From a virus (Duplodnaviria; Caudoviricetes), in the IMG/VR virus record IMGVR_UViG_3300045125_000015, positions 1 through 61,156 of that record: 61,156 nt of DNA. One strand, given 5' to 3'. The notes below the pieces were generated by a model. The model had not been told where the DNA came from. It saw nothing but the letters and a program-made list of their open reading frames with translations, and made no database searches. The position numbers were made by a program, and so were the translations under genes. Of the stretch, positions 4,148-59,800 are shown piece by piece. How positions within the stretch are numbered: position 1 is the stretch's first letter; each line of letters begins with the position of its first letter.

Positions 4148-4157
4148 GGAGTAAGAC

Positions 4158-7165: not shown

Positions 7166-9299
7166 GAAGCGCAAAGTCAAACGGTTTGCAGAAGGCAAGG
7201 AAGTGGAAATTGAAGAGCGTTCGACTAAAAGTCCTCGCTTGATTGCTGAAGAAAAGGCAAAGGCACCGGAAGATTATGCTGGCCTTGGTGGCCGCATGAA
7301 ACCCACTCCTGCCGCTTCTCCTTTTGCCGGTCCTCGTGAGTACATTACAGAGTCCAAGAAACTGAGGTAGAGGAATCCGAGCCGAGCTATGTCAGAAGGC
7401 ATCGCTGCTGGCAAAGGTGCTCGCAACCTTACGCTTGAAGAGTCCAGAAACAACCAAGGCTCAGCCCTGTAGCCAAGAAGAAACCTGTGGTGAAGAAAGC
7501 TTCTATATGAGGACACTGGCGCAAAGATTAGCAGTCAGTCGACTTTGAGTCCAGACTGAGCCTGCTGGACGAGCGCCGCTAAGACTGCCGATGACTTCGT
7601 GCTAACAAGACCAGCTGCTGGCAAGTCACTGTCAGCAAGATTCCAAAGAATACTTGCCTGACTCCTGAGCGTCTTGAGTCTTCGCGCAAGTCTACTACAG
7701 TGACTTTGAAGTCGCAAGCCTGTACGTAGCGCAGAAGACATTCGTGCGGCTCGTAGCATGATAGCTTCAGGTGGCAAAGCTTCCAGCGCATCTAGCCGTG
7801 CTGATGGCATTGCCACACGCGGCAAAACTCGTGGGAGGATCTGCTAATGGCTGATAAAGACCCAACTCGACGGTATGCAACCTATGGATGATTATTTAAG
7901 GTGCCATGTAACAGAAAAACGCGATGAATCGCAAAAAAGCTTTAGATACTATGACGACTAGGAATAGGCAATTAGGCGCTGTAGGTGCTATACCGAATTG
8001 GTATTGCAGAAAACATGTCCTGATGCAACAAGATTAACAAAAGAATACAAGCAGCACGGAAAAGTCAGGCATGGAATCCTCTGAGGTTGAAAATGCAAGC
8101 AAAGACCGGCGCGTAAAGAGAAGCAGCTACGAAGCGCTATGAAAAGTCAAAGTATGGCATGAAAAAAGGCGGCAAGGTTTCTTCTGCTTCTTCTCGCGCA
8201 GATGGCTGCGCACAACGCGGCAAAACCAGAGGGAAGATGGTATGAGAAAGCGCAAAAAGTTTGCTGATGGCGGTGTGACTGGCCAAACCCAGCAGCCTAC
8301 CTATCCTTTCTACGGCAATCAGCCGCAAGCTGGTGGCCAGAACGGCGGCATGAATCAGACCTTCAACATGCAGCCACAGGCTATGGCAGGCCCGAACGAT
8401 CAGATGGGTCAGAACCAGCGGTTCAAGAAGGGCGGCCAAGTCAAGGTCAAGAAGGTGATGGAAGAGTTTAAGGCTGGCAAGCTGAAGTCCTCATCTGGCC
8501 AGAAGGTAACTAACCCCAAGCAGGCGATTGCCATCGGGCTGTCGGAGGCTGGGATGTCCAAGAAGAAAGGTGGCGGTATGGCTGAGTCCAAGAACAATGG
8601 TTGAAGAAAGAAGTGTCCTTCATGAAGAAGAAGGGCGCTCCCAAGTCGATGATCAAACACGAGGAGGCTGAGATGAAAGCAATGAAAAACGGTGGCTATG
8701 CCAAGAAGGCGGCATATGGCTGCATCAAAGATGGGTGCGGTTAAGACAGCTGCTCCGAGTCGTGATGGCGTTGCCACCAAAGGCAAAACCAAAGGCACGA
8801 TGATCAAGATGGCCGGCAACAAAGGCATGAAGCACGGCGGCAAGTGCTGATATGAGGCCATCACGCGGCATGGGTGATATCAGCTCCAAGCAAGATGCCA
8901 AAGGCTAAGACGAAGCCACGCCGGGACAATACCGACTTCACCGAGTACAAGAAGGGTGGGAAGGTAAAACCGGTGTGGGAGAAGCCGCGTCCTAAACAGC
9001 TGGGCAAACCGTCGGTTCTGTCTGCTGTGAAGAAGGCTGCGGCAAAGTCTAGGGCGAAAGGCTGCTGGCCGGCCTTATCCCAACGCTGGTGGATAATATA
9101 TGGGCAGCTAGGAGAAAGTGATGGCAGAGAAATGGATCCAGTCCGCAATCAAGGAAAAGGGGGCGCTACGTTCTGCGCTCGGTGCAAAAAAGGAAAGAAC
9201 ATCCCGGCAGGGAAACTAGCTGCTGCTGCAAAAAAGCCCGGAAAGATGGGCCAACGAGCGCGACTAGCGGAAACATTAGGTAAGCTTCGTAAAAAATGA
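7162..9299 (+). CDS. Run of about five coupled small Lys/Gly/Met-rich proteins (approx. 7162-7847, 7847-8245, 8242-8850, 8852-9121, 9121-9299)
   Basis: Overlapping stop/start codons; shared KKGG and RADG..RGKTRG motifs. 8242-8850 carries KVKKVMEEFKAGKLKSSSGQKVTNPKQAIAIGLSEA (DUF6496-like). Heavy indel noise at 7400-8100. Confidence 0.55.
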
Positions 9300-9929
9300 A
9301 CTACCAAAAACTATATGATCAACTCATTGAACGCGCTAAGTTGCGCGTTTTGGATGGGTATTGTGAAAAACATCATATAGTTCCAAAATCGTTGGGCGGT
9401 AGTAACAATAAAGAAAATATAGTTTCCTTAACTGCAAGGGAACATTTTTTGGCGCATTGGTTACTTTTCAAAATTTATCAATGCCCAGCAATGGCCAAAG
9501 CTTTTAGGTTGATGCTTGATCATCAAAAAAGCGGAAAAGCAAAGATTACGAACAGGCAAAACGTGTTTATGCTTTGTCTATGGTTGGAAGCGCAAATGTA
9601 TCAAAGCGCCCAGAAGTAATAGCCAAACTTAAGAAAAATTTTGTTTCTGCTTTTGCTGGGAAAAAACGGCCTGATCATTCTTTGTTTTTGAAAATTCTGG
9701 AATTTTTGCTGGTAAAAATAACCCAATGTATGGCAAAGGACATTTGCAAAAAGGTTCTGCCAATCACATGGCTCGCAAAGTTCAAGGAACACACGAAGTG
9801 CATGGAGTTATGTTTTGGGACACGGCAAAATCAGCTTCTGAGCATATCGGCGTCAGTGTTCAAGCTATAGTTCAAGCAATAAAGAAAAATCACCGATCCA
9901 AGTTGTGGAATTTGGAGTATGTGTCATGA
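9296..9929 (+). CDS. HNH homing endonuclease with NUMOD-like C-terminus (frameshifted)
   Basis: MNYQKLYDQLIERAK...YCEKHHIVPKSLGGSNNKENIVSLTAREHFLAHWLL; C-terminal NPMYGKG and HTH-like end. AT-rich relative to flanks. Confidence 0.85.
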
Positions 9930-15289: not shown

Positions 15290-16879
15290 ATGTTTGCTTA
15301 TACGAAAATAATGCAAGCGATGACGGCTGCTAGTAGCGGCTATACCGTCGTCCAAACATTTACCGCATCTGGCACTTGGACTGCTCCTACTGGCGTTACT
15401 AGAGTTGACTATTTGGTTGTGGCTGGCGGTGGTGGGGGTGGTTTTGATGTTGGTGGTGGTGGCGGTGCTGGCGGCTTTCTTACTGGCACTGGGTTAAGTG
15501 TTACTGCTGGTACAGATTATACGATTACCGTCGGCGCTGGAGGCGCGGGAGACACAGCGTCTGGTGGAACTGGAACAAACGGTAGCAATTCGGCATTTTC
15601 TACTATCACATCAGCAGGGGGTGGTGGCGGTGGAACTTTAGGTTCAAGTGGTGCTGCCGGAGGTTCTGGCGGTGGTGGTGCTGGTGCTGGCACAGCAACT
15701 AGCGGAGGTGCTGGAAATACACCATCAACTCCTGTCTCACAAGGAAATAACGGCGGCGCAAATGCCGGAGGTTCTAATTATGGCGCTGGTGGCGGCGGCG
15801 GCGCTGGAGCAACTGGAAATAATAGCTCCACTATAGTTGCTGGTAATGGCGGCGCTGGAACTGCATCAACAATCAGCGGTTCCTCGGTAACTTATGCCGG
15901 AGGTGGCGGCGGCGGCGCTGTTGGCACGGCTGGTGGCACTGCTGGTACTGGAGGCTCTGGCGGCGGTGGCAATGGTTCTGCGCCTTCATCTTCAGCCGGA
16001 AGCAATGGCACTGCAAATACAGGTGGTGGCGCTGGTGGAGGTGCTAACTCTGGCGCTGGTGGAACGGGCGGTTCCGGCATCGTTATCCTGAAATATACCG
16101 TCGCATCGCAGACTGTATTTACGTTTAAATCATCGACTAAGTGGGTTGCTCCTACTGGTGTGACTAGTGTGGATTACCTTGTCGTGGCTGGTGGTGGTGG
16201 TGGTGGTTCTCTGCGCGGTGGTGGTGGAGGCGCAGGTGGATTTCGTACTGGAACGAGTTTCTCTGTAACAGCTGGAACTGAATATGCGATAACTGTTGGC
16301 GGTGGTGGGACAGGTTCAACATCTTTTACAGTAAAAGGAGCAAGTGGCTCTAATTCTGTATTCAGCACAATTACCTCCGCTGGAGGTGGTGGCGCCGGTT
16401 CTGTAGATAATAAAAATGGCGACAATGGAGGTTCTGGTGGCGGCGGCGCTGGAGAAGATACTGCTTCTGGCACTGGAGGAACTGGCAATACACCAAGCAC
16501 CACCCCATCACAAGGAAGCAATGGAGGCGCTGGAGTAACTGGCGGTTTATCAACTTCTGGTGCTGGTGGTGGAGGTGGCGGTGCATCTGCGGCAGGTACT
16601 GCGGCAAGCGCACCAAGAACATCAGGCAATGGTGGCGCAGGTACGGCTTCCAGTATTTCCGGTAGCAGCCAGACTTATAGCGGTGGCGGTGGCGGCGGTA
16701 CGTTTTCACCGGGAACTGCTGGAAATGGTGGCGCAGGCGGTGGAGCAAATGGTTCACTTGGAAGTGCGCCTTCAGCTACAGCAAACACAGGTGGCGGTGG
16801 TGGGGGCGGGGAGGCAATTCTCCGTCTTATGGCGGCGCAGGCGGTCTCCGGCATCGTCATCATCAAGATCAATCAATAA
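15290..16879 (+). CDS. Glycine-rich tail fibre/receptor-binding-like protein with two tandem domains
   Basis: Two copies of TF..S..W.APTGVT.VDYLVVAGGGGGG...SGIVI.K. Confidence 0.7.
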   Translation: MFAYTKIMQAMTAASSGYTVVQTFTASGTWTAPTGVTRVDYLVVAGGGGGGFDVGGGGGAGGFLTGTGLSVTAGTDYTITVGAGGAGDTASGGTGTNGSNSAFSTITSAGGGGGGTLGSSGAAGGSGGGGAGAGTATSGGAGNTPSTPVSQGNNGGANAGGSNYGAGGGGGAGATGNNSSTIVAGNGGAGTASTISGSSVTYAGGGGGGAVGTAGGTAGTGGSGGGGNGSAPSSSAGSNGTANTGGGAGGGANSGAGGTGGSGIVILKYTVASQTVFTFKSSTKWVAPTGVTSVDYLVVAGGGGGGSLRGGGGGAGGFRTGTSFSVTAGTEYAITVGGGGTGSTSFTVKGASGSNSVFSTITSAGGGGAGSVDNKNGDNGGSGGGGAGEDTASGTGGTGNTPSTTPSQGSNGGAGVTGGLSTSGAGGGGGGASAAGTAASAPRTSGNGGAGTASSISGSSQTYSGGGGGGTFSPGTAGNGGAGGGANGSLGSAPSATANTGGGGGGGEAILRLMAAQAVSGIVIIKINQ

Positions 16880-20170: not shown

Positions 20171-22310
20171 GTGCCTTTACAGAAACTTCAACTCCGTCCA
20201 GGTCTGAACAGTGAAGGAACGTCGCTTGCCAACGAGGGTGGTTGGTTTGAGTGCGACAAGATCCGGTTTAGGTCTGGTTATCCTCAGAAGCTAGGCGGTT
20301 GGACGCCTATCTCCAGCAGTACGTATCTTGGTGTTGCCCGTTCTATGTGGAACTGGGTGACGCTGCGCGGCTATAACCTGCTGGGCGTCGGCACGAACCT
20401 GAAGTACTACGTCGAGAGCGGCGGTACGTACAACGACATCACGCCGATCCGGGACACGAATGTCCTGACCAATCCGTTTGCCACGACTATCAGCTCCACA
20501 ACGGTCACTGTTACTGATGCTGGTCACGGTGCTATTGCTGGCGACTTTGTGACGTTCTCTGGTGCGACTGCTGTAGGTGGGTTGACTATCAACGGCGAGT
20601 ACGAGATTGTTACTGCGACCACCAACACATACACCATTACTGCTGCGTCGGCTGCTACATCCACAGCGACAGGCGGTGGCACGGTTACGGCGGTATATCA
20701 GATCAACGTCGGTGCTCCTATCTATGGATTCCAGACTGGTTGGGGCGCTGGTTTGTGGGGCGGCTTTGTATCCGGTACTACGCAGACTACTTTGTCTGTC
20801 AGCCTGAACTCGTCCAATACCAACATCTCTGTGGTATCTACCACTGGTTCTCGAATGCTACCGGCACGATCCTGATTGATCAGGAATTGATCAAGTACGG
20901 TGGCAATACTGCCATCTTGTTTACCAGCGCCACACGCGGTGCGAACGGAACTGTAGCTACAAGTCACAGCAATGCCACCACGGTTTACAACGCCAACACG
21001 TTTACTGGCTGGGGTCAGTCTGCGGCATTTGGTATCCCGCAGCAGCTGCGTCTGTGGTCAGAGGCCAACTTTGGTGATTACCTGATCATCAACCCTCGCG
21101 GCGGTGCGCTGTACATGTGGGTGCCGGCATATACCGGAGCAGGCGTCATTGCTGTTTAGCACACCAGCAACGCTGCTTTCCAGCACCAGCGCAGGCATAT
21201 ATCAGACGGATGCCAACTGTCCCAGCATTTGCAGCTTAGTCATGGTGTCGGACTCCAGCCGGTTTGTGATTGGTTTTGGCGTCAACGATTACGGTGATAC
21301 TGCGCAAGATCCGCTGCTGGTGCGTTGGTCAGATCAGGAAAACTACCAAGTCTGGACTCCGGCAATTACCAATCAGGCCGGCAGCTACCGCCTGTCATCC
21401 GGCTCGACCATCGTGGCTGCCCAGCAGACTCGTCAGGAGATATTGGTATTCACAGACAGCGCCGTGTTCTCAATGCAGTATCTTGGGACCGCCGTACGTC
21501 TGGGGCTTCAACATCCTGTCGGACAACATCTCGATTGCTGGTCCGAACGCTGTGGCTACGGCCAACAACATTACGTACTGGATGGGCACAGACAAGTTCT
21601 ACGCCTACACCGGCCGTGTGGAAACATTGCCATGCTCGCTGCGTCAGTTTGTCTACGACGACATCAACCTTGACCAAGCTGCATCAGATCTTTGCTGGCA
21701 CGAACGAGGGATACAGCGAGGTCTGGTGGTTCTACTGCTCGGCTAGGTTCAACCGTGGTTGACCGCTACGTCATCTACAACTATCTGGATCAGGTCTGGT
21801 ACTACGGCACGCTTGGCCGCACGGCATGGCTGGACAGCCCGCTGCGCAGCTATCCGATGGGTGCAACGTACAACCAGACAGTTGTGTACCACGAGAACGG
21901 CAACGATGACGTAGAGGTCAGCGGTCAGGCTAATCCAATCATCTGCGTACATCCAGTCTTCTGACTTTGACATTGGTGACGGTCACAACTTTGGTTTTGT
22001 GTGGCGGATGATCCCAGACATTACGTTTGACGGATCGAGCACGGCTACGCCTAACAAGCCGGAGGTGACGTTCACGGTTCGCCCGCGTCAGAACCCTGGT
22101 GCTCCGTACGGCGTGGCAGATACACCAACGGTTGCCTCAACGCAGTCGTACAACGGCGTCAGGTACTACACGGTTCAGGAGTTCACGGAGATTGTGTACA
22201 CCCGCCTGCGCGGCCGGCAGATGGCATTCAAGGTCAGCTCGGATCAGCTTGGATGTGCATGGCAGCTAGGTGCGCCCAGAATTGATGTGCGTCCTGATGG
22301 CAGACGATAG
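20171..22310 (+). CDS. Tail hub/nozzle-like (tubular B / stabilisation) protein (frameshifted)
   Basis: MPLQKLQLRPG...GWFECDKIRFRSGYPQKLGGW...VRWSDQE...RLRGRQMAFKV...WQLGAPRIDVRPDGRR. Confidence 0.65.
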
Positions 22311-29389: not shown

Positions 29390-32300
29390 ATGGCAACGGT
29401 ACAAGAGCTTGAGCGAGCCTTTCTAAACGCACACAACGCGGGGGATAAGCAGGCCGCACAGGCTCTGGCTGATGCTCTCCGTCAGTCCATGGTTTCCCAG
29501 CCGAGAACCAGCAGCGCCCCAAGAAAGACCTGAAACTGGCTTTGTGGCCGGCATCAAATCTGGCTACGAGCGCCTGAAGGGCGACATCGGCGCTATTGGT
29601 GCGGCAGCTGGGGTTCCAAGGTGCGGAGGAATACGCCGCCAAGCAGCGGGAGAAAGCAGGCGAGATCTACCGCCAGCCTGAGTTCACAGAAGCTCCTGTC
29701 TCGTATCTGACCGGCCTGCTTGGCCAATCCATCCCGTACATGGCAGCGCCTGTAGCAGCGGCCGCAGCAGCTCCCGAAGCATTGGGTGCGCTGGGTGCGG
29801 CTGGTCTGGCTGGCTTGGCATCGGCTACACAGTTCACCGGCTCCAACATTTCCCGCCAGCTTGAGGAAGGCGTATCCGCTAAGGACGCAAATGTCCTCAA
29901 AGCTGTTGCTGCGTCTGTCCCGCAGGCAGCGCTGGATGTGGTCAGTTTCCGCATGATCCCCGGCATCAGAAGATCTTTGGTTCTGTTGGTCGTGAACTGA
30001 CGGAGCAGGAGGCAGCTGTTATTGCCAAGGACGGAATCCTCGGCAGACCATGACCAACGCGGTCAAGTCATACGGTCCATCAGCCCTGAAGACTGCCGGC
30101 GTGGAAGGGACCACAGAAGCTGGCGCAACAGTTCTTTGAGCGCCTGCAAGCTGGGTTATCCATATCGGACGAGGATGCTCGCCGTGAGTATCTGGATAAC
30201 TTTGTCGGTGGCGCATTACTGGGTGGAACTCTGTCTATACCAGGTCGGGCGGTGGAGAAAGCTCAGGCTCGTCAGCGACTGGCAGCCCAGCGGGAAGAAG
30301 CTCCAGCCGAACAAGTGGCAACGTTGCCACCCTCCAAGGCTGTTGCCAGATCCAGTGGCGCCAAGCTGCACCTGCCGTAGAGGCTCTGCCTGTTGCTCCG
30401 CCACCTACCGCCCCAGAAGCCGTAGCTCCAAAGGTTGCTGCCACAGAAGAGGACAAGACTTCGCGCTCAGGGCAGAGGCCGCGCCAGAGGGTGAGTACGT
30501 ATCCGAGTGAGCCGCAGCCGAAAGCCGCCAGAAAGTTGCGGACATCAGAAAGAGCGTACAGACTTTGAGAAGCAGGTTGAAACGCTGAAGAAAGGCCAGC
30601 CGGGCAAGAGCTTGTGGTCGGCAGTCCAAAGGCAAGCTGGTTCCGTCAGAGCTTGCAGAACTGGGCGAGCGCTAAGCGTTTGTTCAGCCTGCGTGCGGCT
30701 AAGGATACTCGTGGCTACACCATTGCCGATCTTGTGGCTGATGGTGAGCTGGACGCTTGGTTGCCGCCGGAATACCGCAAAGGTTCCGGTTGATGCAGAG
30801 ATGCAGATGGATCCGCGGGCGGCACTGGATCGTGACCTTGCGGCAGAAGAGCACATTAAAGAAATTGTTCAGGTCTGGCAACTACCTGACGCTATGCGAC
30901 CACATGAAAGACTTAGAGCAAATTGGTTCCGGATCATTGTCAGATTTAGAGGACTGCTTACCGGGAGACATATCGATGCAAAAACATTCAACGATCTCGT
31001 CCAAGAAGCGGTCGATGAGCAAGGAAGAATTTATCAAGACGCTGAGGCAGCTCTCACCGAAGCAGAGGTTGGAGGTCTTGAGCCACCTGCGCGAGTTTTC
31101 GAAACCATCCCAGAACAGAGAGTAGAGGATGAATACTATCCCGATATGAGTGAGGTGAGAGACACCTCCTCCTCAGAACTGCGCTAAGAGATAAAGGAAG
31201 ACAAGATTGATAAAGAGCAGCAAAAATCTGCTGGCCTATCAGAAACAATAGGTGAGCTGCTCCGCATAAATCAAGTTCCAGAAAGCATTAAACACCGAGC
31301 CAAAATACAAAAGGGTTGAGGGTGAGTGTTTCTATGTCTTTCGAGGGTGAACCTAACAAACAGCTATCTGATTTTGTTTCCAATAACGAATCAAGCGGTG
31401 TTATCTCGGCACTTCAAAATAGCGGCAATCCATTTCATCCAAAGGATTGGCGATAACGCTTGCCAGTCAAGCCAGCCCGTTTAGGTGTTGGGCTTTATCC
31501 TGATAATGCCGCAAGAAGCATCAAGAAGTATGCAGGTATTTATGTGCCGGGCGAGCGCAAACATTCTACATGCGCAGCAAAGCAATGGCTGCATCTGGCA
31601 GTCATGCGGTTGCGCATGAGGTTGTACATCACCTAACGCTTGATGCTTTGCGTAACGCCAACCGCAGAACAAAAACGCGTGATCTGTTGAGCAAAATAGA
31701 AAAACTACTTCAAGCACTGAGTAGAGTTATTCGTCTTGCTCAAACAAGGAAAGGGAAAACTTTATGGTTTGAAGAAATCAACGCGCTGAGTTCGTTGCAG
31801 AAGCTAACTGCAAGCGTTAAGTTTTCAATACGAGCTATGCAGAAGATACCTTAGCGAAAGCAAAATGGCGATCGGATGCATTTGACACGATTGTTGTATC
31901 CGCAAGTTGCTTGGTTGTTACCAAGCCATACCAAACGGCGCTGGATCACGGTAAAGACCATCAGAATCCATCTTTGACGAAGATGTAGACGTTGTTGTCG
32001 ACAAGACCATAGCCAAGCAGCAAAGTATGGAAAAGAAGAAGTAATTGGGTTGGAGAAAGAAGAGCCAAGCAAGGTTGAGAAAGCCAAGGAAGCGGTCAAG
32101 GCTGCCATCCAGCCCCGCAAGCTGCCGAAGAGTCAGTTCGATGGCGTGGCTGACGATTACTACGATGCACTCAAGCCTATCTTTGCGCCTGAGAAAAAGA
32201 CCATCGTGGACAAGATCGACGGTATGCGCGATGACTTCTGGCGCAAGCTGGCGCAGGGCATAGCTGACCAGTACCGCACGATTAAGGACTACAGCGAAGA

Positions 32301-34802
32301 AGCCTACATGAAGGCTCGCATGTCCAAGACCATAGACGGTGCGCTGGAGGGCATCCTGTTCAACGGCGAGGTCAAGCTGACTGACGGTGCGCTGGATATT
32401 GCCAAGGACACCAAGGGTCTGCTGAAAGTGCTGGAGCCGATTGGCAACGAGGTTGATCGTTACCAGATTTGGGTGGCACTAAACCGTGATGCGCAGCTGG
32501 TCAAGCAGGGCAAAGCTCCGTCCGTCAATAAGGATCTGGTTGCTCGACGTAATGAGCTGGCTGCCGGCAAGATTGGTAACAAATCCAGGCTGGAGGTATA
32601 TCAGCAGGTTCAGAAGGATATGAACAAGCTGAATCGTTCTGTGCTGAAGTATCGCTGTCCCGGCAGGGCATCATCGACAAAGAGGCGTACAAGATCTACG
32701 CCCGTGACATCAACTACATTCCGTTCTACAAAGTCATGGACGAGAACGGTGATGTGCAGTCTGCCGCTACCAAGTCAGGGCTGGTCAGCCAGTACTTCTC
32801 AAAGGCGCTGAAGGGTGGAGAGAAGCCGTTCGGTGATCTTGATGGAAAACACCCTGCGGAACTGGAGCCATATCCTGTCAGCCTCCATGAAGAACGAGGC
32901 TGCGAATGCCACGGTCCGTGCAGCTATGGACATGGGCGCTGCGTATCCAAACCTCAAAGGTCGGGCTCGATGTGGCGTGACGGCAAGGTCTACAGCGCCA
33001 AGTCTGGTCGAGCTGGTCAACGGCGGCAAGCTCAAGCCTGAGTTCACCACCAGCGGCAAGGGCATGGTCAAGACCATGATCGGTGGCAAGCAAGCGTACT
33101 TTGATGTGGTAGATCCGCTGCTGCTTGAGTCCATCATGTCCATCGGCTACATGGGTCCGAAGTCCAAGTTCTTGGATGTGGCGCGTGACTTCAAGAACAT
33201 GCTGCAATTTGGCGTTACGCTATCGCCTGCGTTCAAGATCCGCAACTTGTTCCGCGACTCCATCATCCGCCATGGCGGTCAGTGACCTGAAGAAGAACCC
33301 GTTTGCCAACGTGGTGAATGGCTGGGTATGCATCAGACAATGAACAACCCTGCGCATATCTCTGCACTGGCTGGCGGCGCGATCTTCAACTTTGGTTCTG
33401 CCTATGAAGGCGACCAAGCCAAGATGATCAAGCGCCTGCTGGACAAGGGCGTGTCTGGTGACTCCATCCTCGACAACGAGAAGAAGATTGAGCGCGGTCT
33501 GAAGGCGGCATACAAGGCGTACCAAGACTGGGGCAACAAGTCTGAAGCGGCCAACCGTATGGCGCTGTACAACCAGCTCAAGAGAAAAAGGACTACAGCC
33601 ATCTTGAGGCATCGTTCTACGCCCGTGACATGCTGGACTTTTCCATGCAGGGTGCGTGGCCTGCCTTCCGGCTGGTTACGCAGGTAGTGCCGTTCCTGAA
33701 CGCTCGTGTGCAGGGTCTGTACAAGCTTGGCCGTGACGGACTTATCCCTACCAGCCGCGTGATCTACAACACTGTCTACTGGCAAGCCGATAGATGCTAC
33801 GGACAAGCAGAAAGCCGAGCAGTTCAGCGTAGTCATGGGCGCTGTGGCACTGGCCTCGCTCATGCTGTACATGGCGTTCAAGGACGACGACGAGTTCAAG
33901 AAGCGCGAGCAGTGGGACCGCGATAACTTCTGGTGGTTCAAGTTGCCAGGCATGGATTCGGCTATCCGCGTACCTAAGCCATTTGAGATTGGTGCGCTAT
34001 GGAACTATGGCCGAGCGCGTGGCAGAGCAGATCTTTGACAGCGGCGCGGAAGGCAAAGTGTTTGAGCAGAGCATGAAGCGTATGCTGACTGACACGTTCG
34101 CCATCAACCCCATCCCGCAGATGATCAAGCCGCTGGTGGATCTGTACGCCAACAAGGACAGCTTCACCGGTGCGCCGATTGAGACTGCCGGCATGGAACG
34201 TCTGTCCAAGGATCAAGCGTATTGCAGAGAAGACCAGCCCGCTGGCTATCGCACTGTCCAAGGTATCCAACGTATTCCTGCCAGAGTCCACGGAGGTCTC
34301 TCCTGTGCAGGCCGACTATGCGATCAAGGCGTACTTTGGCTGGCTGGGCGGTACGGCATCGTGGGCATCTCACTACGCTGTGCAGCCGTTCTCAAAGTCT
34401 GCCTACCCGGACAATGACTGGACTGAAACTATGTCGATGGGATTCATCAAGTCCCTGCCGGCAACGCAGTCCAAGTACGTCACGGCGTTCTACGAGAACA
34501 ACAAGGAGATCAGCCAAGCTTATGCTGACATGCGCCACTTCGCCCAGCTAGGCGAGGCAGACAAGGTGCAGGAGATCCTGAAGGAGAAGGGCGACAAGAT
34601 TGCCATGGCCAAGTTCTATGACAATGCGTCCAAGGATATGGCCAAGGTACGCCAAGCCATCCTGCACATCCGGGCGGATGAGAACATGACTGGCGCTCAG
34701 AAGAAGGAAGAGATTGACCGGCTGAAGATAATCATCGGCGAGATAGCCAAGCAGATGGAGGACGCAAGGCTGATGGTTAAGAAGAGTTATGCCGCTCAAT
34801 AG
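29390..34802 (+). CDS. Large polyvalent/ejection protein with HExxH motif and C-terminal LPD38-like domain (many indels)
   Basis: AHEVVHH at about 31612-31632; INYIPFYK; QFGVTLSPAFKIRNLFRD; VVPFLNARVQG; W.RDNFWWF...RVPKPFEIG; DLYANKDSFTGAPIE. Last gene of the + strand module. Confidence 0.65.
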
Positions 34803-36355: not shown

Positions 36356-38134
36356 AGTGGCACCACCATTTCTGCGGCCAGTTCTTCGTCAGACAGGAAC
36401 GGGAACCATGTCATGCAGGGGGCCTGCTTGCCGTCCTTAAATGACTTGCGATGGCATGGATCTGCTGGTTCTCTGTGCAGAGCACGTCAACGATGTATGG
36501 GCGCGTCCAGCTTGAATGACCATCGGCAGGTGTTTGTTCAAAGTGGGTATGCTCACATGCTCGCTCGCGTATCTATCTTGAATGTCCTGGCTACTTCCTC
36601 AAAGTCTGGGGAACCACAAACCAGTTTCTGATGTTCACGCCGTGCACGCTTCCGTCGTAGAACCTGGACTGCGTGTTCTTGATGCTGAGATATCCCTTGG
36701 TTGTTCAGGATAATGATCTTGATGGGCAGGTTATGCTCACGGATAACTGCCAGCTCCTGCATGTTGGACATGAAGCTGCCGTCACCTACTATGACGATGA
36801 CGTTCTTTGCTCCTGCCTTGGCCACGCCGATGGCGGCCGGCAATGCCCAGCCCATGTCGCCCTGAGATTGGCTATGAACGAACCGCTGCTGCGCCCTGGA
36901 TGCGGACAGCTTGCGGCACCGTGTAGAAAGCAGTGCCTGCGTCGGCCATGAACACGGCATCGTCCGGGGCGTGGCGGTAGATGGCATCCAGTACGGCGTA
37001 GATGTTCAGGCCGTTGGTGTCATTCAAATACTCCGGCTGCATGACTGGCCACTTGGCTTTCCAGTGGTTGCACTTGTCTATCCATTCCTGTCTGGTCATA
37101 GCATGGCTCCGAAGAATTGATGTAGCGGTACGGTTATCTTGTGGTCTACCGGCACGATGTCCTTGGCCAGCTCGTCAGGTTCAATGTCCACGTAGATCTT
37201 GTCGGCTCTGCGGGCTGAACTGTTTGGGGTCATAGCCAATCACGCCGGCATTCATGGATGTGCCAAGGATCAGCAGCAAGGTCAGCGTTCTGCATGGCAA
37301 AGTTGCCAAACCTGGTGCCGCGTGAGCCTATGGTTCCCATGTTCAGCGGGTGGTCGTAGGGCAGGTAATCCTGTGCGCCGTAGGTGGTGACGAACGGTGA
37401 TCTCGTACTTGTGACGAACTGGACAAACTGATCCACCATGCCTGACTGCCGGATGCCCATGCCTGCCAAGATGATCGGGCGCTCGGCGTTCTTCATGTCG
37501 TGCCAGATGGTCTTCGGGTCAAAGACGTACTCAAGTTTGGCGTCTGTCTGAATGTTCTGATTATTTATGTGATATGGAACTGCGTCGTCCGGCATTTCTG
37601 CCTGTTGAACATCTATGGGGATGTCTATCCATACCAGGTCCCGGTCTTCCTGATATTGCGTGATGTACTGCCGGCCTCAAGTGCAATCCTGACAACATTA
37701 ACATCGGAAACAAAGAGCGATAACTTGGTCATCGACCTCATGGTTGCTGCGATGTCGTGCTCTTGCAGTCCGTAGTGGCGCAGGGACAAGTTTCTTTCTT
37801 TGTTGATATGCGCTGTGCAGGTATCCTTGCGCACGTTGCCGGAGATGAACAAGTACCGGCACTCCATCCTGCCAAGCGTTCAGCACACTGGTTGCGCAGT
37901 TGGTTCCACCGCAGCCGGTAGTGGGATTAACCACGGCCAGCTTGCCTGTGTACTTAGCCTCACCTATAGCTGCATGGCCAGCGCCCTGCTCATGGTGGTA
38001 GCAGATGTACTCGATGCCGCCGTGCTTGATGAAGCCGTCGTTCAAGCCAGCTGCTCCGCCACCCATCAGCCCATGCACCCGGCGTACGCCTATGCTGTCA
38101 GAGATACTCTGCTAATCCAGTCAGCAACTCTCAT
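36352..38134 (-). CDS. Thiamine-diphosphate-dependent enzyme, acetolactate synthase-like (YerE-like)
   Basis: HHEQGAGHAA; TTGCGGTN..TSVLNAWQD; ERPIILAGMG; GNFAMQNAD; ADAG; GDMGWALPAAIG; GDGSFMSNMQEL...LNN ThDP motif. Confidence 0.88.
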
Positions 38135-45836: not shown

Positions 45837-46540
45837 TCAGCCATCGAATGACTCCTTGTAGGTCTTGAATGTAGCGGTCAGCTCCCCGTAGGCTTCGGCA
45901 TCCTGCTGCTCAATGACCTTGTAGATGTTGGCGTTCGTCCGCCAGATGTTCATAACGTCATCCTTGCTTGCCGCAGTGTCCAGTGCCGTAATCGTAAGTT
46001 CAACCACCACCGTGAGCCAGTCTTCAAAACTGGTGCCTGGATCGGCCGAGACTTTGAGCTGCCACTCCGCGTCTTTCCCTTCCACCTTCTTCGGCGTAAC
46101 AACCGGAGGCTTGGGTGGCGTCGGGACGGCCGGCGCTGCTTTAGGAGCCGCTTGCGGCGGCGCAGTCTTCGTTGCTGCGTTGCCATCGTCGTCCTCCGGG
46201 GCAATGCCACAGGCGGCCATCAGGCTGTACCTGCGGGCATAAGACAAAGCCGAGCCAAAACCCTGGGCGTCGTTCTTGGTGGCTGGCATGAACAGAGTTG
46301 CCACCGGACAGCTGCTCGCCAGACTCGTGGATAAAGGTGGTGGATACCTTGACGCCAGTCTCGGTGCTCTTCTGTCAGCTGCATCAGGAAGATGCCGTTG
46401 TTATTCAAGGCATCGATGACCGCTTCCACGCAGGCTGACAGGTCAGCGTAGCGGCTGCGGAAGTGTGGGTTGGTACTGGTCTTCAGCGCAGGACCAAACT
46501 CCCGCTGCGCTTTGACCAGTGCCGAGGCGATTGCTTTCAT
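45837..46540 (-). CDS. erf: Erf-family single-strand annealing protein (frameshifted)
   Basis: ALVKAQ...NPHFRSRYADL...AQGFGSALSYARRYSLMAACGIAPEDDDGNAA. Confidence 0.9.
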
Positions 46541-46730
46541 TTGTTCTCCTTCGTTCTGTACTGGCGCGGTCAGGTTCTGCGAGGTGTGCCATCCATCTTG
46601 CAGACCGTACGGGGCATCAGCGTGACTTGCCGCCAAGGTTGCGCATCTTCACGCCCAGAGCCTTGGCAATAGTTACCAGCTGCTCAGGCTTGGCGTCCTC
46701 AATCTGGATGTTGATCTTCATGGCTGCACC

Positions 46731-48822: not shown

Positions 48823-49356
48823 ATGGGAGAAATGATGGGAGCGTCAAAAATTGGTATGGCCATGCTTTCCAGGTACATCAAGCACCGGCTTGGCTGCGGA
48901 GCAAAGAATGGAGTCAGCCCGTACGACTTGGCCTGCAAGGTCTTGGAGATGGATGGGAAACGTAAGCCTTTTGGCTTGAAGTCGAAAGCATGGGTGGAGC
49001 GCAACCTTGAGCACATATCTGCAATCTCGCGGCAGTACGTCAGCACAAAGCCATACCAACCACCGCCAAAACCAAAGAAGAAAGCGCCAGCAATTAGTCC
49101 CAACGTTATCTCAAATGATTTATTTTTAAAAACATATGAGTGGCGTCGTCTTCGCATGGAAGCGTTGAAAAAGTATGGGCCGAAGTGTATGTGCTGCGGC
49201 GCTACGCCTGCGACTGGTGCGGTCATGAACGTGGATCACATCAAGCCACGCAAGTTATTCCCAGAGCTGGCGTTGGAGATATCCAACCTTCAGATCCTCT
49301 GCCATGAGTGCAACCACGGCAAAGGCAACTGGGATCAGTCGGACTGGCGGTCGTGA
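48823..49356 (+). CDS. HNH endonuclease
   Basis: WRRLRMEALKKYGPKCMCCG...VDHIKP...NLQILCHECNHGK. Confidence 0.88.
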   Translation: MGEMMGASKIGMAMLSRYIKHRLGCGAKNGVSPYDLACKVLEMDGKRKPFGLKSKAWVERNLEHISAISRQYVSTKPYQPPPKPKKKAPAISPNVISNDLFLKTYEWRRLRMEALKKYGPKCMCCGATPATGAVMNVDHIKPRKLFPELALEISNLQILCHECNHGKGNWDQSDWRS

Positions 49357-49387
49357 TTCTTTTTACTATTGAAGCAATACATGAGTG

Positions 49388-49433
49388 TTGACAGGAACAA
49401 TGTGTTGACGGATACTAGATGTAGAGGTACAGT
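49388..49433 (+). promoter_or_regulatory. Tandem sigma70-like promoters upstream of the repeat locus
   Basis: TTGACA-17-GATACT (49388-49416) and TTGACG-17-TACAGT (49405-49433). Confidence 0.6.
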
Positions 49434-49456
49434 GATTCCTAGATATAGGAGTGGAT

Positions 49457-49618
49457 ATGAAAGAGGGGGAGTGGCTGCGGGAGTATGTGCAGGAATTTGC
49501 GGACAAGCTGGAGCAGTCTGTGGTGGAGCGGGAGCGCGAGCGTGCGGCCATGATCTGTCATGCCTGTCGTGACCTGCCGCCGGAGGTCATCGCGGAAAGG
49601 ATTTTGGATCGTAAGTAA
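49457..49618 (+). CDS. 53 aa hypothetical protein
   Basis: AGGAG RBS; MKEGEWLREYVQEFADKLEQSVVERERERAAMICHACRDLPPEVIAERILDRK. Confidence 0.55.
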   Translation: MKEGEWLREYVQEFADKLEQSVVERERERAAMICHACRDLPPEVIAERILDRK

Positions 49619-49623
49619 TACCT

Positions 49624-50000
49624 GGCGAGGCACGGCTTGGCTCGCCAAGGCGAGGTCGGGAAAGGTGGGGGCTGGCAACAGCGGATAGGGGATTCTCAAG
49701 AGTCCTCCTTCCCCTGGCAAGCTAGTGCTGGGCACGGCAGTGTCCGGCAAGGTTCGGTCAGGTGCGGTATGGGCTGGAAACAGCGTACAGAATCTTCTAC
49801 GAGGGTCTCTGTGCGATGTGAAGAAATCAAACACTGCGAGGCGAGGCTAGGCTGGGTAGAGCTTGGTCCGGCTAGGCAAGGTATGGGCTGCTGTGCAGCG
49901 TATAGCAGGTTCTCTGAGCCTGTTATGCGATGCGTAAGCATCAAGGGTTCGGCGCGGTCTGGAATGCAATGGCGGTGCAGGGACTGGTATGGCAAGGTTC
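49624..50000 (+). repeat. Array of four (GGY-NN)n pentamer tracts separated by hairpin cassettes; candidate guide-RNA array
   Basis: Unbroken 5-nt register in tracts 49624-49668, 49716-49770, 49835-49884 and 49946-50000. Tracts 1-3 end in GGGCTG-loop-CAGC plus a long hairpin. Confidence 0.85.
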
Positions 50001-50021
50001 TTTTAACTTAGGAGAGTGATC

Positions 50022-50636
50022 ATGGCAAAAGCCAAACAAGTAGCAGAAGTTTCCAACGGCGGCGCAGAGTCAATCGAGTACGGCATCCCGTACACCGCGC
50101 ATGTCACCATCGAAGGCAGCGCAGACTTCCTGTTCCATCGCTGGAACTGCGAGGCCGTAGAAGCAAAATCCAAAGCGGCAAAGAATTCCGCAGCCAAGAA
50201 AACAGACGACATCGAGTCCTACGTCTGGCGCAACGACGACGGCGAACTGTGCTGCCCCGGCGAGTACCTGCGGCAGTCCATCATCATGGCCGCCAAGTTC
50301 AAGCAAGACCCACGTTCACCACGCAAGTCAGCGATGGATCTGACCAAGGCGGGCGTAGTCAGCCTGACCAACTTGGCCAGCTTCGGCAAGACAGAGTGGG
50401 ACTACGAAGACAAGCGCCGCGTTGTCATCCAACGTGCAGGCGTGAACCGTGTGCGTCCGGCGATGAAGGCGGGCTATCGGCTCGACTTTGACCTGATGGT
50501 TCTGACACCGGAATACATCGATCAGTTCTGGCTGCAAGACACGTTATCTATGGCCGGCAGACTGGTCGGTATCGGTGACTTCCGTCCGACGTTTGGCCGG
50601 TTCAACGTAGTGAAGTTTGATATCTCTCAAGGGTGA
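50022..50636 (+). CDS. Stand-alone RAMP/Cas7-like protein associated with the GGY-NN tracts
   Basis: Intact 204 aa ORF. N-terminal strand YTAHVTIEGSADFLFH; GELCCPGEYLRQSI (cf. Cas7/Csm3 P.IPGSSLKG); C-terminal Gly-rich loop AGRLVGIGDFRPTFGRF. Fold inferred from motifs only. Confidence 0.65.
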   Translation: MAKAKQVAEVSNGGAESIEYGIPYTAHVTIEGSADFLFHRWNCEAVEAKSKAAKNSAAKKTDDIESYVWRNDDGELCCPGEYLRQSIIMAAKFKQDPRSPRKSAMDLTKAGVVSLTNLASFGKTEWDYEDKRRVVIQRAGVNRVRPAMKAGYRLDFDLMVLTPEYIDQFWLQDTLSMAGRLVGIGDFRPTFGRFNVVKFDISQG

Positions 50637-50706
50637 GGTGCGGCGATGATCAGGCAGCAGTGGACGGGCAATGCAGGGATTAGGTTCAGGTCAGGCACGG
50701 TATGGG
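50632..50706 (+). repeat. Fifth GGY-NN tract, downstream of the RAMP-like gene
   Basis: GGTga GGTgc GGCga ... GGAcg GGCaa TGCag GGA.. GGT.. GGTca GGCac GGTat GGG, with a few 1-nt register slips. Confidence 0.7.
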
Positions 50707-50723
50707 TTTTATAGGAGAGTTTC

Positions 50724-51843
50724 ATGCTTCAATTTAATAGGTACATTTTGCGCGGCGAAACTGATGACTTCCACATCCGGTTCATCGCGCTGGTCAACTC
50801 CATCATCCACGAGCTGCCGGGTGACATGAAGGGCAGCATGGACAAGCTGCGTGAACTAGCACACAGGTATCCGCTGAACGACCGCCTGCCAGCAGTAGCG
50901 GCCAGGTTGTTCTTCTGGGGCAAGGTTGCATGGGATGACATCAAAGACATCCTGCCGGCAGAACTTCCATCGGCCTTCTTCTACAAGCAGGAGATCGTCG
51001 GCTGTCTAGGATACGAGCGGGCATGGCGCAGGTACGGCATCAACGAGGATCAGTGGATGCTGTATCAAGGCATGGATACCTACACCCCGCACAGTTCTCA
51101 GCCCGGCGGCTTCATCTGCTACCAGCCGCGCAGCAGCGGGTTCTTCTCCGTGATCGAGAACATCATCGCCGCTGACATTGCCGCCAGCATCGAGGGATAC
51201 GCAAATGGTTCTTCGATATGTCCGGCAACTGGTGGGCGTACGATGAGCCGTTCGAGGATATTTTCGGCGACATTTTCCAGTACCCAAAGAACGGCATGTT
51301 GCCCAAGATGAACTTCGATGCCATGCGCAAGATCTGGATGACGCCGACAGACACCACGGCATCCTTGCTGTCCACCATGAAGGCAACCTGGTACGCCCAT
51401 ATCTATCAAGCTATCGGCGCGTACGCTCCGGAGGTCAAGGGCATGGATAACTGCGGCGTAATCTTCGTGCGCGGCGGTGACAAGCTACATGACCGAGACT
51501 ATTCCATCGCCCACGCAGCCTGATCAGGCGTGACCTGAAGACGATGGAACGCTTGTGCCAGACGCGGTACGTCCTGTCTGATGACAAGGAAGCAGGCGCG
51601 AGGGTAGCGGGTCTGGATGGGTATGTCATTGACCGCAGCCATCAGGTAGAGGGCGGCTATCATCATCGCCCCGGCCAGAAGACCAGCTGCATGAACATCC
51701 TCGGCAACTATCTGGCTATGGTGGAAGCCAAGATGAACATGTCCTGCCCGTCAGCCAACCTTGTCAACGCAGCGCAGTGGACGCGGAACGATGACGAGAA
51801 CTGGAGCCAGGCCAACCCTGTTTACCGATACCTTTTGATTTAG
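50724..51843 (+). CDS. GT23/NodZ-like fucosyltransferase-type protein (frameshifted)
   Basis: SSGFFSVIEN; GVIFVRGGDKL (cf. HVRRTDK); YVLSDD; NILGNYLAMVEA...SANL. Confidence 0.55.
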
Positions 51844-56853: not shown

Positions 56854-59800
56854 GAACGGCTGAACCGCCGACAGCATGGACATGATTTCCACGCCCATGC
56901 TCAAGCAGCGGTCGCCTTGCCCGCTATAGTCGGAAACTACCCTGACCTGCCCGAACTCATCTTCGATCAGGTACAGGGTGAACATGCGCAGGTGATTATT
57001 CATGCGCGCAGGATAGCAGGTCGGCTGCGGCGCGCTCGAAAGCGGAGCGTGTATCGTCAATCATCTCGGCGATGTCGCGGCCGGAATAATCCTCGACGGC
57101 TTCCCAAGCGATGATGTCATCGTGCTCCAGATATTCGTCTGACCGAAGCTGGTCTAATATTTCTTGATACGTCATATCGCAGGGCGTGTCGGAAAGCCAC
57201 TGATTCAGCTCAAAAGTTTCTGCGGTTTCGCGTAGTGTGTTCATCGTCTGATCTCCTATAAGTTATCAAAAGTTTAATGTGGTAACGTTTCCACATTGCG
57301 AATTTGGCAAGACTGACTCATTCGTTTTCGGCGCGGTCGATAACTGCCAGCATTTCTAAACGCAACTGTCGGACGGCTCCAAGCTTGTATGCGGTATCGG
57401 CTTCAATATCTTCAATAAAGGGTAACAGGCGGTAAAGCATGTCGAGCATGTCCGGCGCGGCTGCCATCAGTCGGCCGATATTCAGCGGTATGTCGCGGGC
57501 TATTTCCTGATCGCCTGAGCCGATCGTACATCGGTCGTCGGCAATATCGGCAAGCCAGATTTGCTCGGCGGTCGTGGAGTAGGTCATCGTCTGATCTCCT
57601 AAAAATTCTTGGCAATTTGCTTAAAGGTGCGCAGATAATCCAGCGCGTTGCGGTAGTCGTCGCATCTGATCTTGTCGTGCAGTTCGCCGTTTGGCCGGTA
57701 GCATTTGACAGTCCAAAAATGGCGCGGGCGGTCGGCTTCGATGACGGTGTGCGCGCCATTGCGGGAAGGTTTTAATTTGAATCATCGTCTGATCTCCTAT
57801 TAATTGGCGTTCCATGCTCGATGATTGGGAGGCGCGTTGATACGGCTTGCCGCGAATCCAGCTTCGGCCAATACATTTGAAAATCGCGGACGTCTTGCAG
57901 GCGCGGCAGCTCGCTTCGCGCAGCGGTCGCAAAGTTCGTAACCCTGGTCGGCGGTGGATTTCGAGTCGGGCACTAAGGCAAGCTGGCCGTTCTCGTTGGC
58001 GGTCGATGGCCGGAAGTACAAGTAAAAGCGGCTCCAGGTTTCCGAGCGTTTGCTGGCATCCTGGCGCGGTTGTGATGCCGGCCTCAGCGCAAGCGGTCAC
58101 AATGTCATTAAATTTCATCCACGGTTGTCATCGTGCGGTCTCCAGTGAGGCAATCATTCGGGGCGGTGGGCTGAATACTTCGATGGCGATAACCCAGCGC
58201 GGCAATATCTCGCAGGGCGTGGGCGGTCAGCGTCTTTAGTGCCGGCGATGCGGGCGAATAGCTTGCAGCGGCTTTGCAGGCGGGATAGTAGGTCAATAAT
58301 CCGTAGTTTTTATCTGTGCGAATAGTTATTTTCATTTTGATAATCCTTTACAAGTAGCATATCCATTTTGTTTGAGATATTCGCTTAGTTCTCAAAGGTT
58401 GCTTGTGTTGCAGCCTGACATAATTGTTAAAACTTTTAACTATTGGGGCTTCAATTGCGCCGATTTTTGTTGTGCGTAATTGGTCGGGCGGGCAATTTAA
58501 AATTACTGCGCCATCGCTTAATAATTTTTCGTAAAGCGGGAACCAGTCGGGAACTAATTTCATAGGAACTTCGGAAACCTGCAAACCTTCCGCAAGTTTC
58601 CAAAAATCCGTCTGTGATTTGCGGGCTTTCATGCGCTTACCTAAACCAGCGTTGCGCTACTGCGGCAGATAATTCGCGGCGGGCGGTGCGTCTGATCTCG
58701 TCGGCCGTTTTGCGGTCGTCTGGTAGGTCTGCGCGGAATCTATCCCAAAGGGCTGACGATAAAACGGCGCAAGCTGCGCGGCGGTATTCAGTCGGCCAAT
58801 ATTGGCCGGTGCAATAGTCACGCGATAACCTGATTCTGTTTTGACCAGGGACAAGCGGCCGGAATAACTGCTGCGGGCGGCTTCGAGTAAATCTTGGGCG
58901 GTGATACTGTCGCGCCAGCTAATAGCTGCAAGTAGTGCCTGGGCGTGGTGCAGGTCGCGGGTTATGCTGCGGCTTTCGCTGCGGTAGGCTGAAACATCCC
59001 CATAATTGCAGGAATTCCAGGCCAGGGCGTTGACGTATCCAGCGGTCGAGGGCGGCGATTATTTGGGCTTTTTCGTTTTGCATGGTGGTGGCTCCAATTA
59101 GTTTAGGTCTAGGGCTTGCTGCTGCGGGTAGCGGGCGTGGTTGGTGAAATAAAACCGGACGGTGTAACAGTCGGCGTGTAAACGGCTTATAGCGTCAACG
59201 GCGAACTGTGATTGATCGTCGGCGGTGCTTATGGTCAAGTCGGGCAGCGCGGCGAACGTCATCATGTAAGCGTCAAGTTCGGCGGCCTCATCGTCCGATA
59301 GTCCGGTGTAATCGGCATTGATAAGGGCTGGCAGCCAATGAGCGGCAAGCGTTTCTTCGTAGTAGTCGTTTAATCGGTGCATGGTCGGCCTCAGTCGATT
59401 TCAGGTTGTGTGCGGGCAAGGGCGGCGCAAAATAGGCTTGTGCCGGTGGTGAATAGTCCGCTGGCGTGGTCAATGTGGCCGAGAGTCCAGGCGGCAAGAC
59501 AGATACCGGCCAGGATCAGGCAAGCGGCGCAAAGGGCGAGATTAAATAGGCGCATGGTTGGCCTCTGGAATGGTAAAAGTGGCGATAAGCCAGCAGCAAT
59601 CAGGAAAGCCTCGGTTATCGTGGCGCAGGTGGGCTGGCGGCTTGTCAGTGCCGAGCGGAAAGGTGTACAGGTCGGCGTGTTTGAAGCCGAATTCCTGCAT
59701 GGCTTGCACGAGTGCGCCGAATTGGCCTTTTCCAACAGCAACAGACAGTCCGAGTTCACCGCCTGCATGGTGAGCGCATTGCGCGGCCTCGATAGCGCTT

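Follow-up and report, generated by a model that had tools for sequence, protein, structure and literature searches.

The window analysed here is the whole 61,156-base virus record IMGVR_UViG_3300045125_000015, which represents an aquatic phage and has a GC content of 54%. Positions 49388-51311 hold a locus that we assign, as argued below, to the systems called Viral Interference Programmable Repeat (VIPR), and all of its parts lie on the plus strand. In the 5' to 3' direction, it consists of promoters, a leader open reading frame (ORF), four guide tracts (vrRNA1-4), the gene vipr, a fifth tract (vrRNA5), and a downstream ORF. The tracts are composed of five-nucleotide (nt) units of the form GGY-NN. 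The individual features are as follows:

49388-49416 and 49405-49433, plus strand: two overlapping sigma-70-like promoter matches (TTGACA-17-GATACT and TTGACG-17-TACAGT)
49457-49618, plus strand: leader ORF of 53 amino acids (aa), between the promoters and the first guide
49624-49668, with tail to 49715, plus strand: vrRNA1, 9 units, 7 of them GGY; guide GA AC TT TC AA GA CG AA GG
49669-49715, plus strand: class A tail of vrRNA1, hairpin GCUG-GCAA-CAGC followed by a second hairpin
49716-49770, with tail to 49834, plus strand: vrRNA2, 11 units, 8 of them GGY; guide AA AG TG AC AG CC AA TC CA GC AT
49771-49834, plus strand: class B tail of vrRNA2, third hairpin decayed
49835-49884, with tail to 49945, plus strand: vrRNA3, 10 units, 8 of them GGY, the first degenerate
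49885-49945, plus strand: class B tail of vrRNA3, three hairpins
49946-50000, element to 50021, plus strand: vrRNA4, 11 units, 7 of them GGY, no structured tail
50022-50636, plus strand: vipr, 204 aa, predicted minimal RAMP/Cas7-like RNA-binding subunit
50632-50708, plus strand: vrRNA5, irregular tract that starts on the vipr stop codon, no structured tail
50724-51311, plus strand: downstream ORF, 195 aa as read, in the position of an accessory gene; its homology stops near residue 160

Systems of this kind have been described on bioRxiv since April 2026 (10.64898/2026.04.26.720920, 10.64898/2026.04.26.720927, 10.64898/2026.10.15.759431), and the locus adds no new principle to them. In these preprints, Vipr is presented as a minimal RAMP of about 20 kDa, and the guides as 9-16 GGY-NN units followed by a structured tail. 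One Vipr subunit is placed on each unit, with GGY buried and NN displayed, and the complex reads double-stranded DNA (dsDNA) with one base skipped per unit and blocks transcription. The natural targets named are competing satellites and prophages (10.64898/2026.04.26.720920, 10.64898/2026.04.26.720927).

Guide tracts and their 3' ends

The original prediction, made from the letters of the window alone, had described four tracts of 9-11 pentamers upstream of the gene, and direct reading bore this out; tract 1 reads as quoted there, GGCga GGCac GGCtt GGCtc GCCaa GGCga GGTcg GGAaa GGTgg, at 49624-49668. In tracts 1-4, 30 of the 41 units begin with GGY. Periodicity was assessed by counting GGY at 10 successive 5-nt steps on both strands of the whole window. 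Only four clusters reached at least 6 of 10, all of them on the plus strand within 49609-50000, with maxima of 7, 7, 8 and 6; the minus strand yielded no cluster at this threshold. Of 50 random sequences drawn from a first-order Markov model, 31 peaked at 4, 18 at 5, and one at 6. Tandem Repeats Finder did not call the GGY tracts.

The predicted fifth tract is real (50632-50708) but irregular: in this record it stays below 6 of 10 GGY steps because it contains two one-base register shifts. It ends 15 nt short of the next start codon, and L001-L012, the 12 closest loci, have a tract called at the same position in 10 cases. In a related-strain contig from a public RNA library, four small indels place tract 5 in an unbroken 5-nt register of 14 units, and as many genes of the record are split over two or three frames, the register shifts may be errors of the record. 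Elsewhere in the window, a tail-fibre-like gene (phrog_2295, phrog_863) contains a GGT/GGC repeat region at 15290-16879 that is glycine-rich, GGY-rich and of period 3; it was not called by the 5-nt test.

Guides 1-3 carry a 3' tail whose structure, as predicted from the alignments, is shown by covariation. In the window and its closest relatives, these guides close with a conserved unit (GGTAT, GGTAA or similar) before the tail. Class B tails combine a first hairpin of 5 bp, a second of 10 bp with a loop of 9 nt and, in many cases, a third of 5 bp capped by a GNRA loop. Across 15 such tails, taken from the window and nine related loci, pairing was retained in 98.6% of cells, versus 87.8% in shuffles and 21-52% in slid controls, and compensatory changes occur in 7 of the 10 pairs of the long helix (helix 2). 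Folds of single class B sequences reproduce the covariation structure, and the tail of vrRNA3 folds at -32.5 kcal/mol (z -4.9). The class A tail of vrRNA1 (-21.2 kcal/mol, z -2.0) shares the first hairpin with class B and differs in the second. This type also occurs in the related loci L001, L006 and L008, with paired helix-2 changes among five copies according to our reading of the alignment. No Rfam match was obtained in 49300-50800, ARAGORN found no tRNA gene in the whole window, and neither hammerhead nor tRNA-like separators were seen.

Tracts 4 and 5 end differently, in GG, a run of U (GG-U5-6) and then the AGGAG of the next gene. Thus, vrRNA4 runs into a U-run and the vipr ribosome-binding site (50001-50021), and this GG-U5-6 ... 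AGGAG ending before vipr recurs in relatives down to 58% protein identity. Tract 4 ends 21 nt before the vipr start, and the interval from vipr to the following gene is bridged by tract 5; the tail-less tracts could conceivably act as Vipr assembly sites on its own mRNA and so form an autoregulatory loop, an idea that we put forward tentatively and consider rather unlikely. A growing Vipr filament, or pairing between the U-run and the Shine-Dalgarno sequence, would then tune the translation of vipr and the downstream gene. If true, such a loop would be a feature not described for VIPR in the accessible preprint text.

The Vipr protein and its relatives

The vipr gene is preceded by the ribosome-binding site AGGAGAG, 6 nt before the ATG. 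As a single sequence, the protein aligned through its last 70 residues with the PDB chain 36pp_D ('SUSP1 Vipr protein'; E 9e-5); a profile built from 70 relatives of the window Vipr (A1) extended the match to chain residues 5-189 at E 1.2e-17. In the SUSP1 protein, H17, D177, R138, W178 and R179 hold G1, G2 and Y3 of the repeat, as stated in the structure preprint. By our reading of the alignment, the SUSP1 residues H17, E71, K82 and R138 correspond to H39, E81, K92 and R145 of the window protein, and D177, W178 and R179 to D186, F187 and R188. R145, D186 and R188 are at least 90% conserved in profile A1. The residues so aligned include one essential DNA clamp named in the structure preprint.

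The original prediction had called the protein RAMP/Cas7-like, and structure modelling followed by a Foldseek search led to the same assignment. The AlphaFold 2 model (mean pLDDT 94.3) has the minimal RAMP fold, i.e., an RRM core, a β-hairpin thumb at 128-148, and a glycine-rich loop at 183-193 (GIGDFRPTFGR). Type VII Cas7 and Csm3 were the best matches (E 2e-8 to 1e-6, probability 1.0, TM-score about 0.55) in a fold library covering releases up to 2026-04-08, to which the solved Vipr structure itself does not belong. Among family collections, PHROG assigned the protein to phrog_4652, a family without assigned function (E 2e-13), and Pfam returned no family.

The Vipr subfamily is large and well sampled: 6331 of 6459 candidate proteins matched at E ≤ 0.001, and 933 cluster representatives were present in a wider library. 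Of the 79 viral loci in which a homolog was identified, 75 show GGY tracts adjoining the gene on its own strand, a consistency that the original prediction had proposed as a check of its reading. Four loci lack tracts, one of them being cut right after the gene, and opposite-strand tracts were found only twice across the 79. Spacing was counted on 72 distinct loci. Of the 47 that have a tract upstream, 15 place its last unit no more than 35 nt from the vipr start; of the 52 with a tract downstream, 35 have it starting no more than 35 nt from the vipr stop. The commonest neighbours are DUF669-like genes (44/81) and Sak4-like AAA_24 ATPase genes (37/81) upstream and a helicase gene (31/81) downstream; because of these neighbours, vipr can be said to sit, as a tendency, in the replication-recombination module. 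The corresponding module of the window includes Erf-like, exonuclease, ParB-like and helicase genes.

A single cultured-phage record, Phage DSL-LC04 from lake water (OR003939.1), carries a homolog at 4001-4618 with 70% identity, annotated as a helix-turn-helix transcriptional regulator. An unannotated gap of 320 nt lies upstream of it, where guides would be expected. Close relatives in bacterial genomes (70-72% identity) come from Tepidimonas, Caldimonas, a Burkholderiales metagenome-assembled genome (MAG) and Thermomonas, and the more distant ones are mostly from Phycisphaerales. When the guides of the window were compared with the vipr loci of relatives, no match rose above the null.

These results bear on whether the tracts might instead be elements acting at the DNA level, such as protein-binding iterons or an origin, or an odd coding region. 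A mechanically called ORF of 124 aa (49637-50011) does run through tracts 1-4, and the RNA nature of the tracts is itself read from sequence. A 5-nt period is, however, incompatible with a codon period, and the number and length of tracts vary freely even among close relatives. The tracts keep to the strand of the gene in nearly all loci, the compensatory base changes in the tails point to RNA structure, and the adjacent protein is homologous to a solved RNA-binding Vipr. A DNA-level or coding role in place of RNA guides can therefore be given next to no credence, and the tracts are best read as RNA guides.

Guide matches and a candidate prophage target

Search patterns were composed of the NN pairs of a guide joined by one free base, following the published one-base-skip rule. 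The 20-base pattern of guide 2 matched 18 viral contigs, all of which also match the 11th unit, so that 22 of 22 informative bases agree. Within the site, the 18 contigs differ only at skip bases, and their flanks diverge widely. The 22-base pattern was found in 8 records among species-representative bacterial genomes, which by their titles comprise four Limnohabitans and one each of Comamonadaceae, Burkholderiales, a beta proteobacterium and a Bacteroidetes MAG. Limnohabitans isolate 15K carries the site on a 493-kb contig. With up to 2 mismatches allowed, the site is present in 13 of 127 genomes of the genus of Limnohabitans sp. 15K (5 with none, 3 with one, 5 with two), compared with 0 of 127 for the reversed control pattern.

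Translation of the 8 bacterial records places the site antisense to an ORF of 140-153 aa and in phase with its codons, the skip base falling on the wobble position. It covers the 11 codons I-A-C-E-F/L-G-L-V-H-L-F and coincides with the sole invariant block, WIACE.GLVHLFS, of 11 distinct proteins that are 47-53% identical between subgroups. The gene occupies an early place in a rightward operon, with a sigma-factor-like gene on one side and a Sak4-like AAA_24 ATPase gene on the other, and one of the target contigs (44.8 kb, GC content 57%) is classed as a provirus. In the Atlas, the target protein appears only in 'hypothetical' clusters. No match to guide 2 was found in jumbo-phage records.

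The other guides gave weaker results. The 16-base core of guide 1 matched 24 viral stretches in 8 families; 14 of them have a common context, and their match extends to the ninth unit (18 of 18 bases), at codons 8-16, in phase, of the portal gene (phrog_9232) of a jumbo-phage group. The portal gene was rejected as a target and kept as a lead only, the match being at chance level: the other 10 stretches fall into 7 unrelated groups. The jumbo-phage group was likewise set aside; its complete 209.7-kb member has a GC content of 39% (window, 54%), and none of the other guides has a match there. Guide 1 had no match in 5 genomes carrying the guide-2 target. For guide 3, the 12 viral and 26 metagenome matches are unrelated, and only one of the 26 has the leading unit; neither search yielded a convincing target. 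The variant form of tract 5 has no local target, its best score of 20/28 equalling the null. Within the window itself, no self-target exceeded the range of shuffled guides (best 13/18, 15/22, 14/20 and 16/22).

The 20-base pattern of guide 4 matched one viral contig (L146) and one Marivita record, in both cases the same Sak4-like ATPase gene with its start codon covered. This candidate was rejected as being at chance level according to the reversed control; by our estimate, about one chance match is expected in genome_contigs. Guide 4 had no match in the 127 Limnohabitans-genus genomes or in 5 target-prophage records, and a sister guide in the related locus L006, which has seven units in common with it, had none in viral contigs. 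As a side observation, the gene start touched by this chance-level match belongs to the Sak4-like genes, which are also common vipr neighbours.

The locus could, in principle, be a VIPR system whose guide-2 match is a coincidence, the true targets lying elsewhere or outside the searched collections. The reversed 20-base guide-2 control still matched two near-identical viral contigs (L185 and L186, about 265 kb), and because the control thus hit one family, single-family 20-base matches, such as that of guide 4, must be taken as chance level; the portal match of guide 1 is likewise one of 8 families matched by its core, and guide 3 has unrelated matches only. Guide 2, however, differs from these in several respects: it matches 22 bases rather than 20, its site is codon-phased on the one invariant block of the protein, seven of the eight bacterial matches come from one lineage, and the genus-wide count contrasts with the empty control. 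In addition, the target element is a provirus, like those reported for the Pseudomonas fulva clade. Coincidence is therefore unlikely. With two bases matched beyond the 20, a codon-phased site on an invariant block, one host lineage and a parallel in the published targeting of prophages, we consider it likely that guide 2 targets an early gene of prophages in Limnohabitans-type and related Burkholderiales genomes.

From the guide-2 target, in turn, a Limnohabitans-like host is suggested for the phage. Limnohabitans is an abundant genus of lake bacteria with few known phage-host links. The predicted phage-against-prophage pairing is concrete and testable, and it provides a host prediction for an uncultured phage.

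Proposed mechanism and comparison with known systems

Taken together, the homology of Vipr, its Cas7-like fold, the GGY tracts beside its homologs and a target that obeys the one-base-skip rule make it very likely that 49388-51311 is a VIPR locus that works, by homology, as the published systems do. The original prediction had named this match, and these four lines of evidence sustain it. Its picture of one subunit on each GGY, displayed NN, and probable repression of transcription without a nuclease, perhaps in competing phages, agrees with the account in the preprints. It had also reported that CRISPR repeats and further cas genes are missing, in accordance with the results obtained here: no regular, CRISPR-like repeat array occurs across the 61,156 bases, none of the 71 ORFs scanned (out of 111 ORFs of at least 70 aa) matched a PADLOC Cas model at E ≤ 1e-5, and no Cas family appears among the PHROG matches of 72 window ORFs. 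The locus thus holds neither a repeat-spacer array nor cas genes besides Cas7, the two marks of class 1 CRISPR-Cas.

According to the mechanism that we propose, the tandem promoters would drive a single transcription unit comprising the leader ORF, vrRNA1-4, vipr, the fifth tract and one further ORF. Three promoter-like sites were found in 49200-51500, compared with 1.1 expected, and two of them are the overlapping sigma-70-like matches at 49388-49433, in agreement with the tandem promoters of the original prediction. The sequence of this stretch is almost unchanged in L001 and L002, the two closest relatives, and the VIPR transcription unit presumably starts here. The guides would be runs of 9-11 units of GGY plus a free NN, with guides 1-3 ending in two or three hairpins. 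By homology to the SUSP1 Vipr-vrRNA filament, Vipr subunits would align along the RNA, one per pentamer, with GGY buried and NN displayed. The filament would then read dsDNA as NNxNNx, skipping every third base, and would sit on the DNA and block transcription. Guide 2 appears to be aimed at the most conserved 11 codons of the prophage early-operon gene, with the skip base on wobble positions. The phage thus most likely silences early genes of a competing prophage resident in the same host.

Downstream of the promoter hexamers, at 49412-49452, a direct repeat (CTAGATGTAG / CTAGATATAG) was noted that is kept in L001 and L002 and may serve as an operator. The leader ORF has no Pfam or PHROG family, and of 80 vipr loci just L001 and L002 yielded homologs of it. 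For the downstream ORF, Pfam and PHROG gave no family either and the Atlas no usable match; only 4 homologs were found in 5.8 billion proteins, and it is present in 2 of the 80 vipr loci.

One neighbouring gene adjoins the VIPR locus:

48823-49356, plus strand: HNH endonuclease gene (PF01844, E 9.8e-9)

The original prediction, which had spoken of a lone gene and no nuclease, overlooked this gene directly upstream, but it looks like a mobile insertion outside the system. The gene abuts the promoters, so a system that destroys its targets, with the HNH protein as accessory nuclease, has to be weighed. Precedents exist: in the VIPR discovery preprint, types III-V encode predicted nucleases or helicases, and a figure legend lists HNH among the accessory proteins. 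Nevertheless, the gene lies upstream of the promoters and hence outside the unit, and an HNH homolog stands beside vipr in only 3 of 80 loci. Contigs of related strains part from the window upstream of 49374 and, by our reading, there resemble the HNH-less locus L002, which indicates strains without the gene at this place. A second HNH/homing-type endonuclease gene is present at 9296-9619, a common situation with free-standing mobile genes of phages. The gene is probably a mobile homing endonuclease outside the VIPR system, and a nuclease-based mode of action is highly improbable; repression by a nuclease-free filament remains the preferred reading.

Among public data sets, an aquatic metatranscriptome represents the stretch best; its contigs cover the leader ORF, guides 1-4, the vipr start and tract 5 at 95-100% identity. 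They show presence in an RNA library and hint weakly at transcription; contig depth in such a library is unsuited to showing a transcription start. Contigs of related strains, from runs X1 and X16, add information on variation: in some, the same tails are joined to different tracts, in one the middle of tract 5 (50638-50693) is replaced, and one has an extra tail-plus-tract unit at 49885-49945, where the joint goes back 57 bases with 59 other letters between. These variants fit hypervariable guides on constant scaffolds.

As to the quality of the record, its longest ORF is 530 aa, and the phage families phrog_18222, phrog_11199, Erf-like and phrog_3287 are split over two or three frames, in the regions 32050-34802, 36553-38078, 45837-46636 and 20171-21673. 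An alternative genetic code was considered and rejected, as long ORFs do not appear under any stop reassignment; the split genes are better explained by frameshifts in the record. Apart from the VIPR locus, a 24-nt direct repeat, TCATCGTCTGATCTCCTATAAGTT, occurs three times (57241-57264, 57584-57607 and 57782-57805, 92-100% alike). It holds AGGAG and ATG on the minus strand and may be a shared translation-start or promoter region of minus-strand genes.

Several points, besides the match of the reversed control, weigh against the proposed reading. A convincing target was found for one of the five guides only, and the many diverged guide-2 matches are homologs that count as one event. The target protein has no Pfam or PHROG family, and its fold model is weak (pLDDT 65.6) and gave no structural match. 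The 127 Limnohabitans-genus genomes yielded no vipr homolog, so the host assignment follows from the target alone. On the side of the system itself, the ends and processing of the RNAs and the binding of Vipr to them are deduced here from sequence and homology, and SUSP1 W178 is replaced by phenylalanine (F187). The RNA-library contigs may derive from DNA in the library, and no conserved accessory (vap) gene was recognised at vipr loci. The record also seems rich in frameshifts, so that tract 5 and the downstream ORF are unsafe in their finer details.

VIPR is a newly reported way of reading DNA by RNA, and the locus provides a worked example beyond those so far studied in enterobacterial and Pseudomonas systems. 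What it adds is a five-guide anatomy, tails of simple hairpins, tail-less tracts abutting ribosome-binding sites, so that guides are located within the 5' leaders of genes, and a candidate Limnohabitans prophage target.

Compared with class 1 CRISPR systems, the locus has a noncontiguous guide and lacks a repeat-spacer array, Cas5, Cas6, Cas10 and Cas1. The likeness to Csm3 (type III-A) and type VII Cas7 concerns the RRM core, the thumb hairpin and the glycine-rich loop, as well as the fixed-step polymerisation on a guide RNA, whereas sequence identity to the window Vipr is only 8-14%. The steps differ too: in the preprint account, Vipr advances by 5 nt with three bases buried, versus 6 nt with one base flipped for Cas7.

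Among VIPR systems, the prophage-borne one of Pseudomonas fulva, compared here by its published description, has the same order of guides, vipr and downstream gene, and its targets are reported to be mostly resident prophages; the system of the window differs in its Burkholderiales-like host lineage and in being located on a free phage contig. The type II system of Escherichia phage SUSP1 is distant in sequence, the single-sequence match covering only the C-terminal 70 residues. In the window, four guides lie upstream and one downstream of vipr, whereas SUSP1 is reported to have one upstream and three downstream. The SUSP1 tail is reported to have a pseudoknot; in the tails here, which are made of simple hairpins, two or three in number and with GNRA loops, none was seen, no search aimed at it having been made. 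Two tail-less tracts abut ribosome-binding sites here, no homolog of a conserved accessory gene was recognised, and the target is a prophage early gene, in contrast to the satellite reported for SUSP1. The common ground is nonetheless extensive. Both systems are phage-borne and appear to be aimed at a competing mobile element, without self-targets, a CRISPR array or cas genes. Both have guides of 9-16 GGY-NN units with a structured 3' tail and a one-base skip on codon wobble positions, and both encode a Vipr of about 200 aa, homologous at E 1.2e-17, in which the GGY-binding residues are kept.

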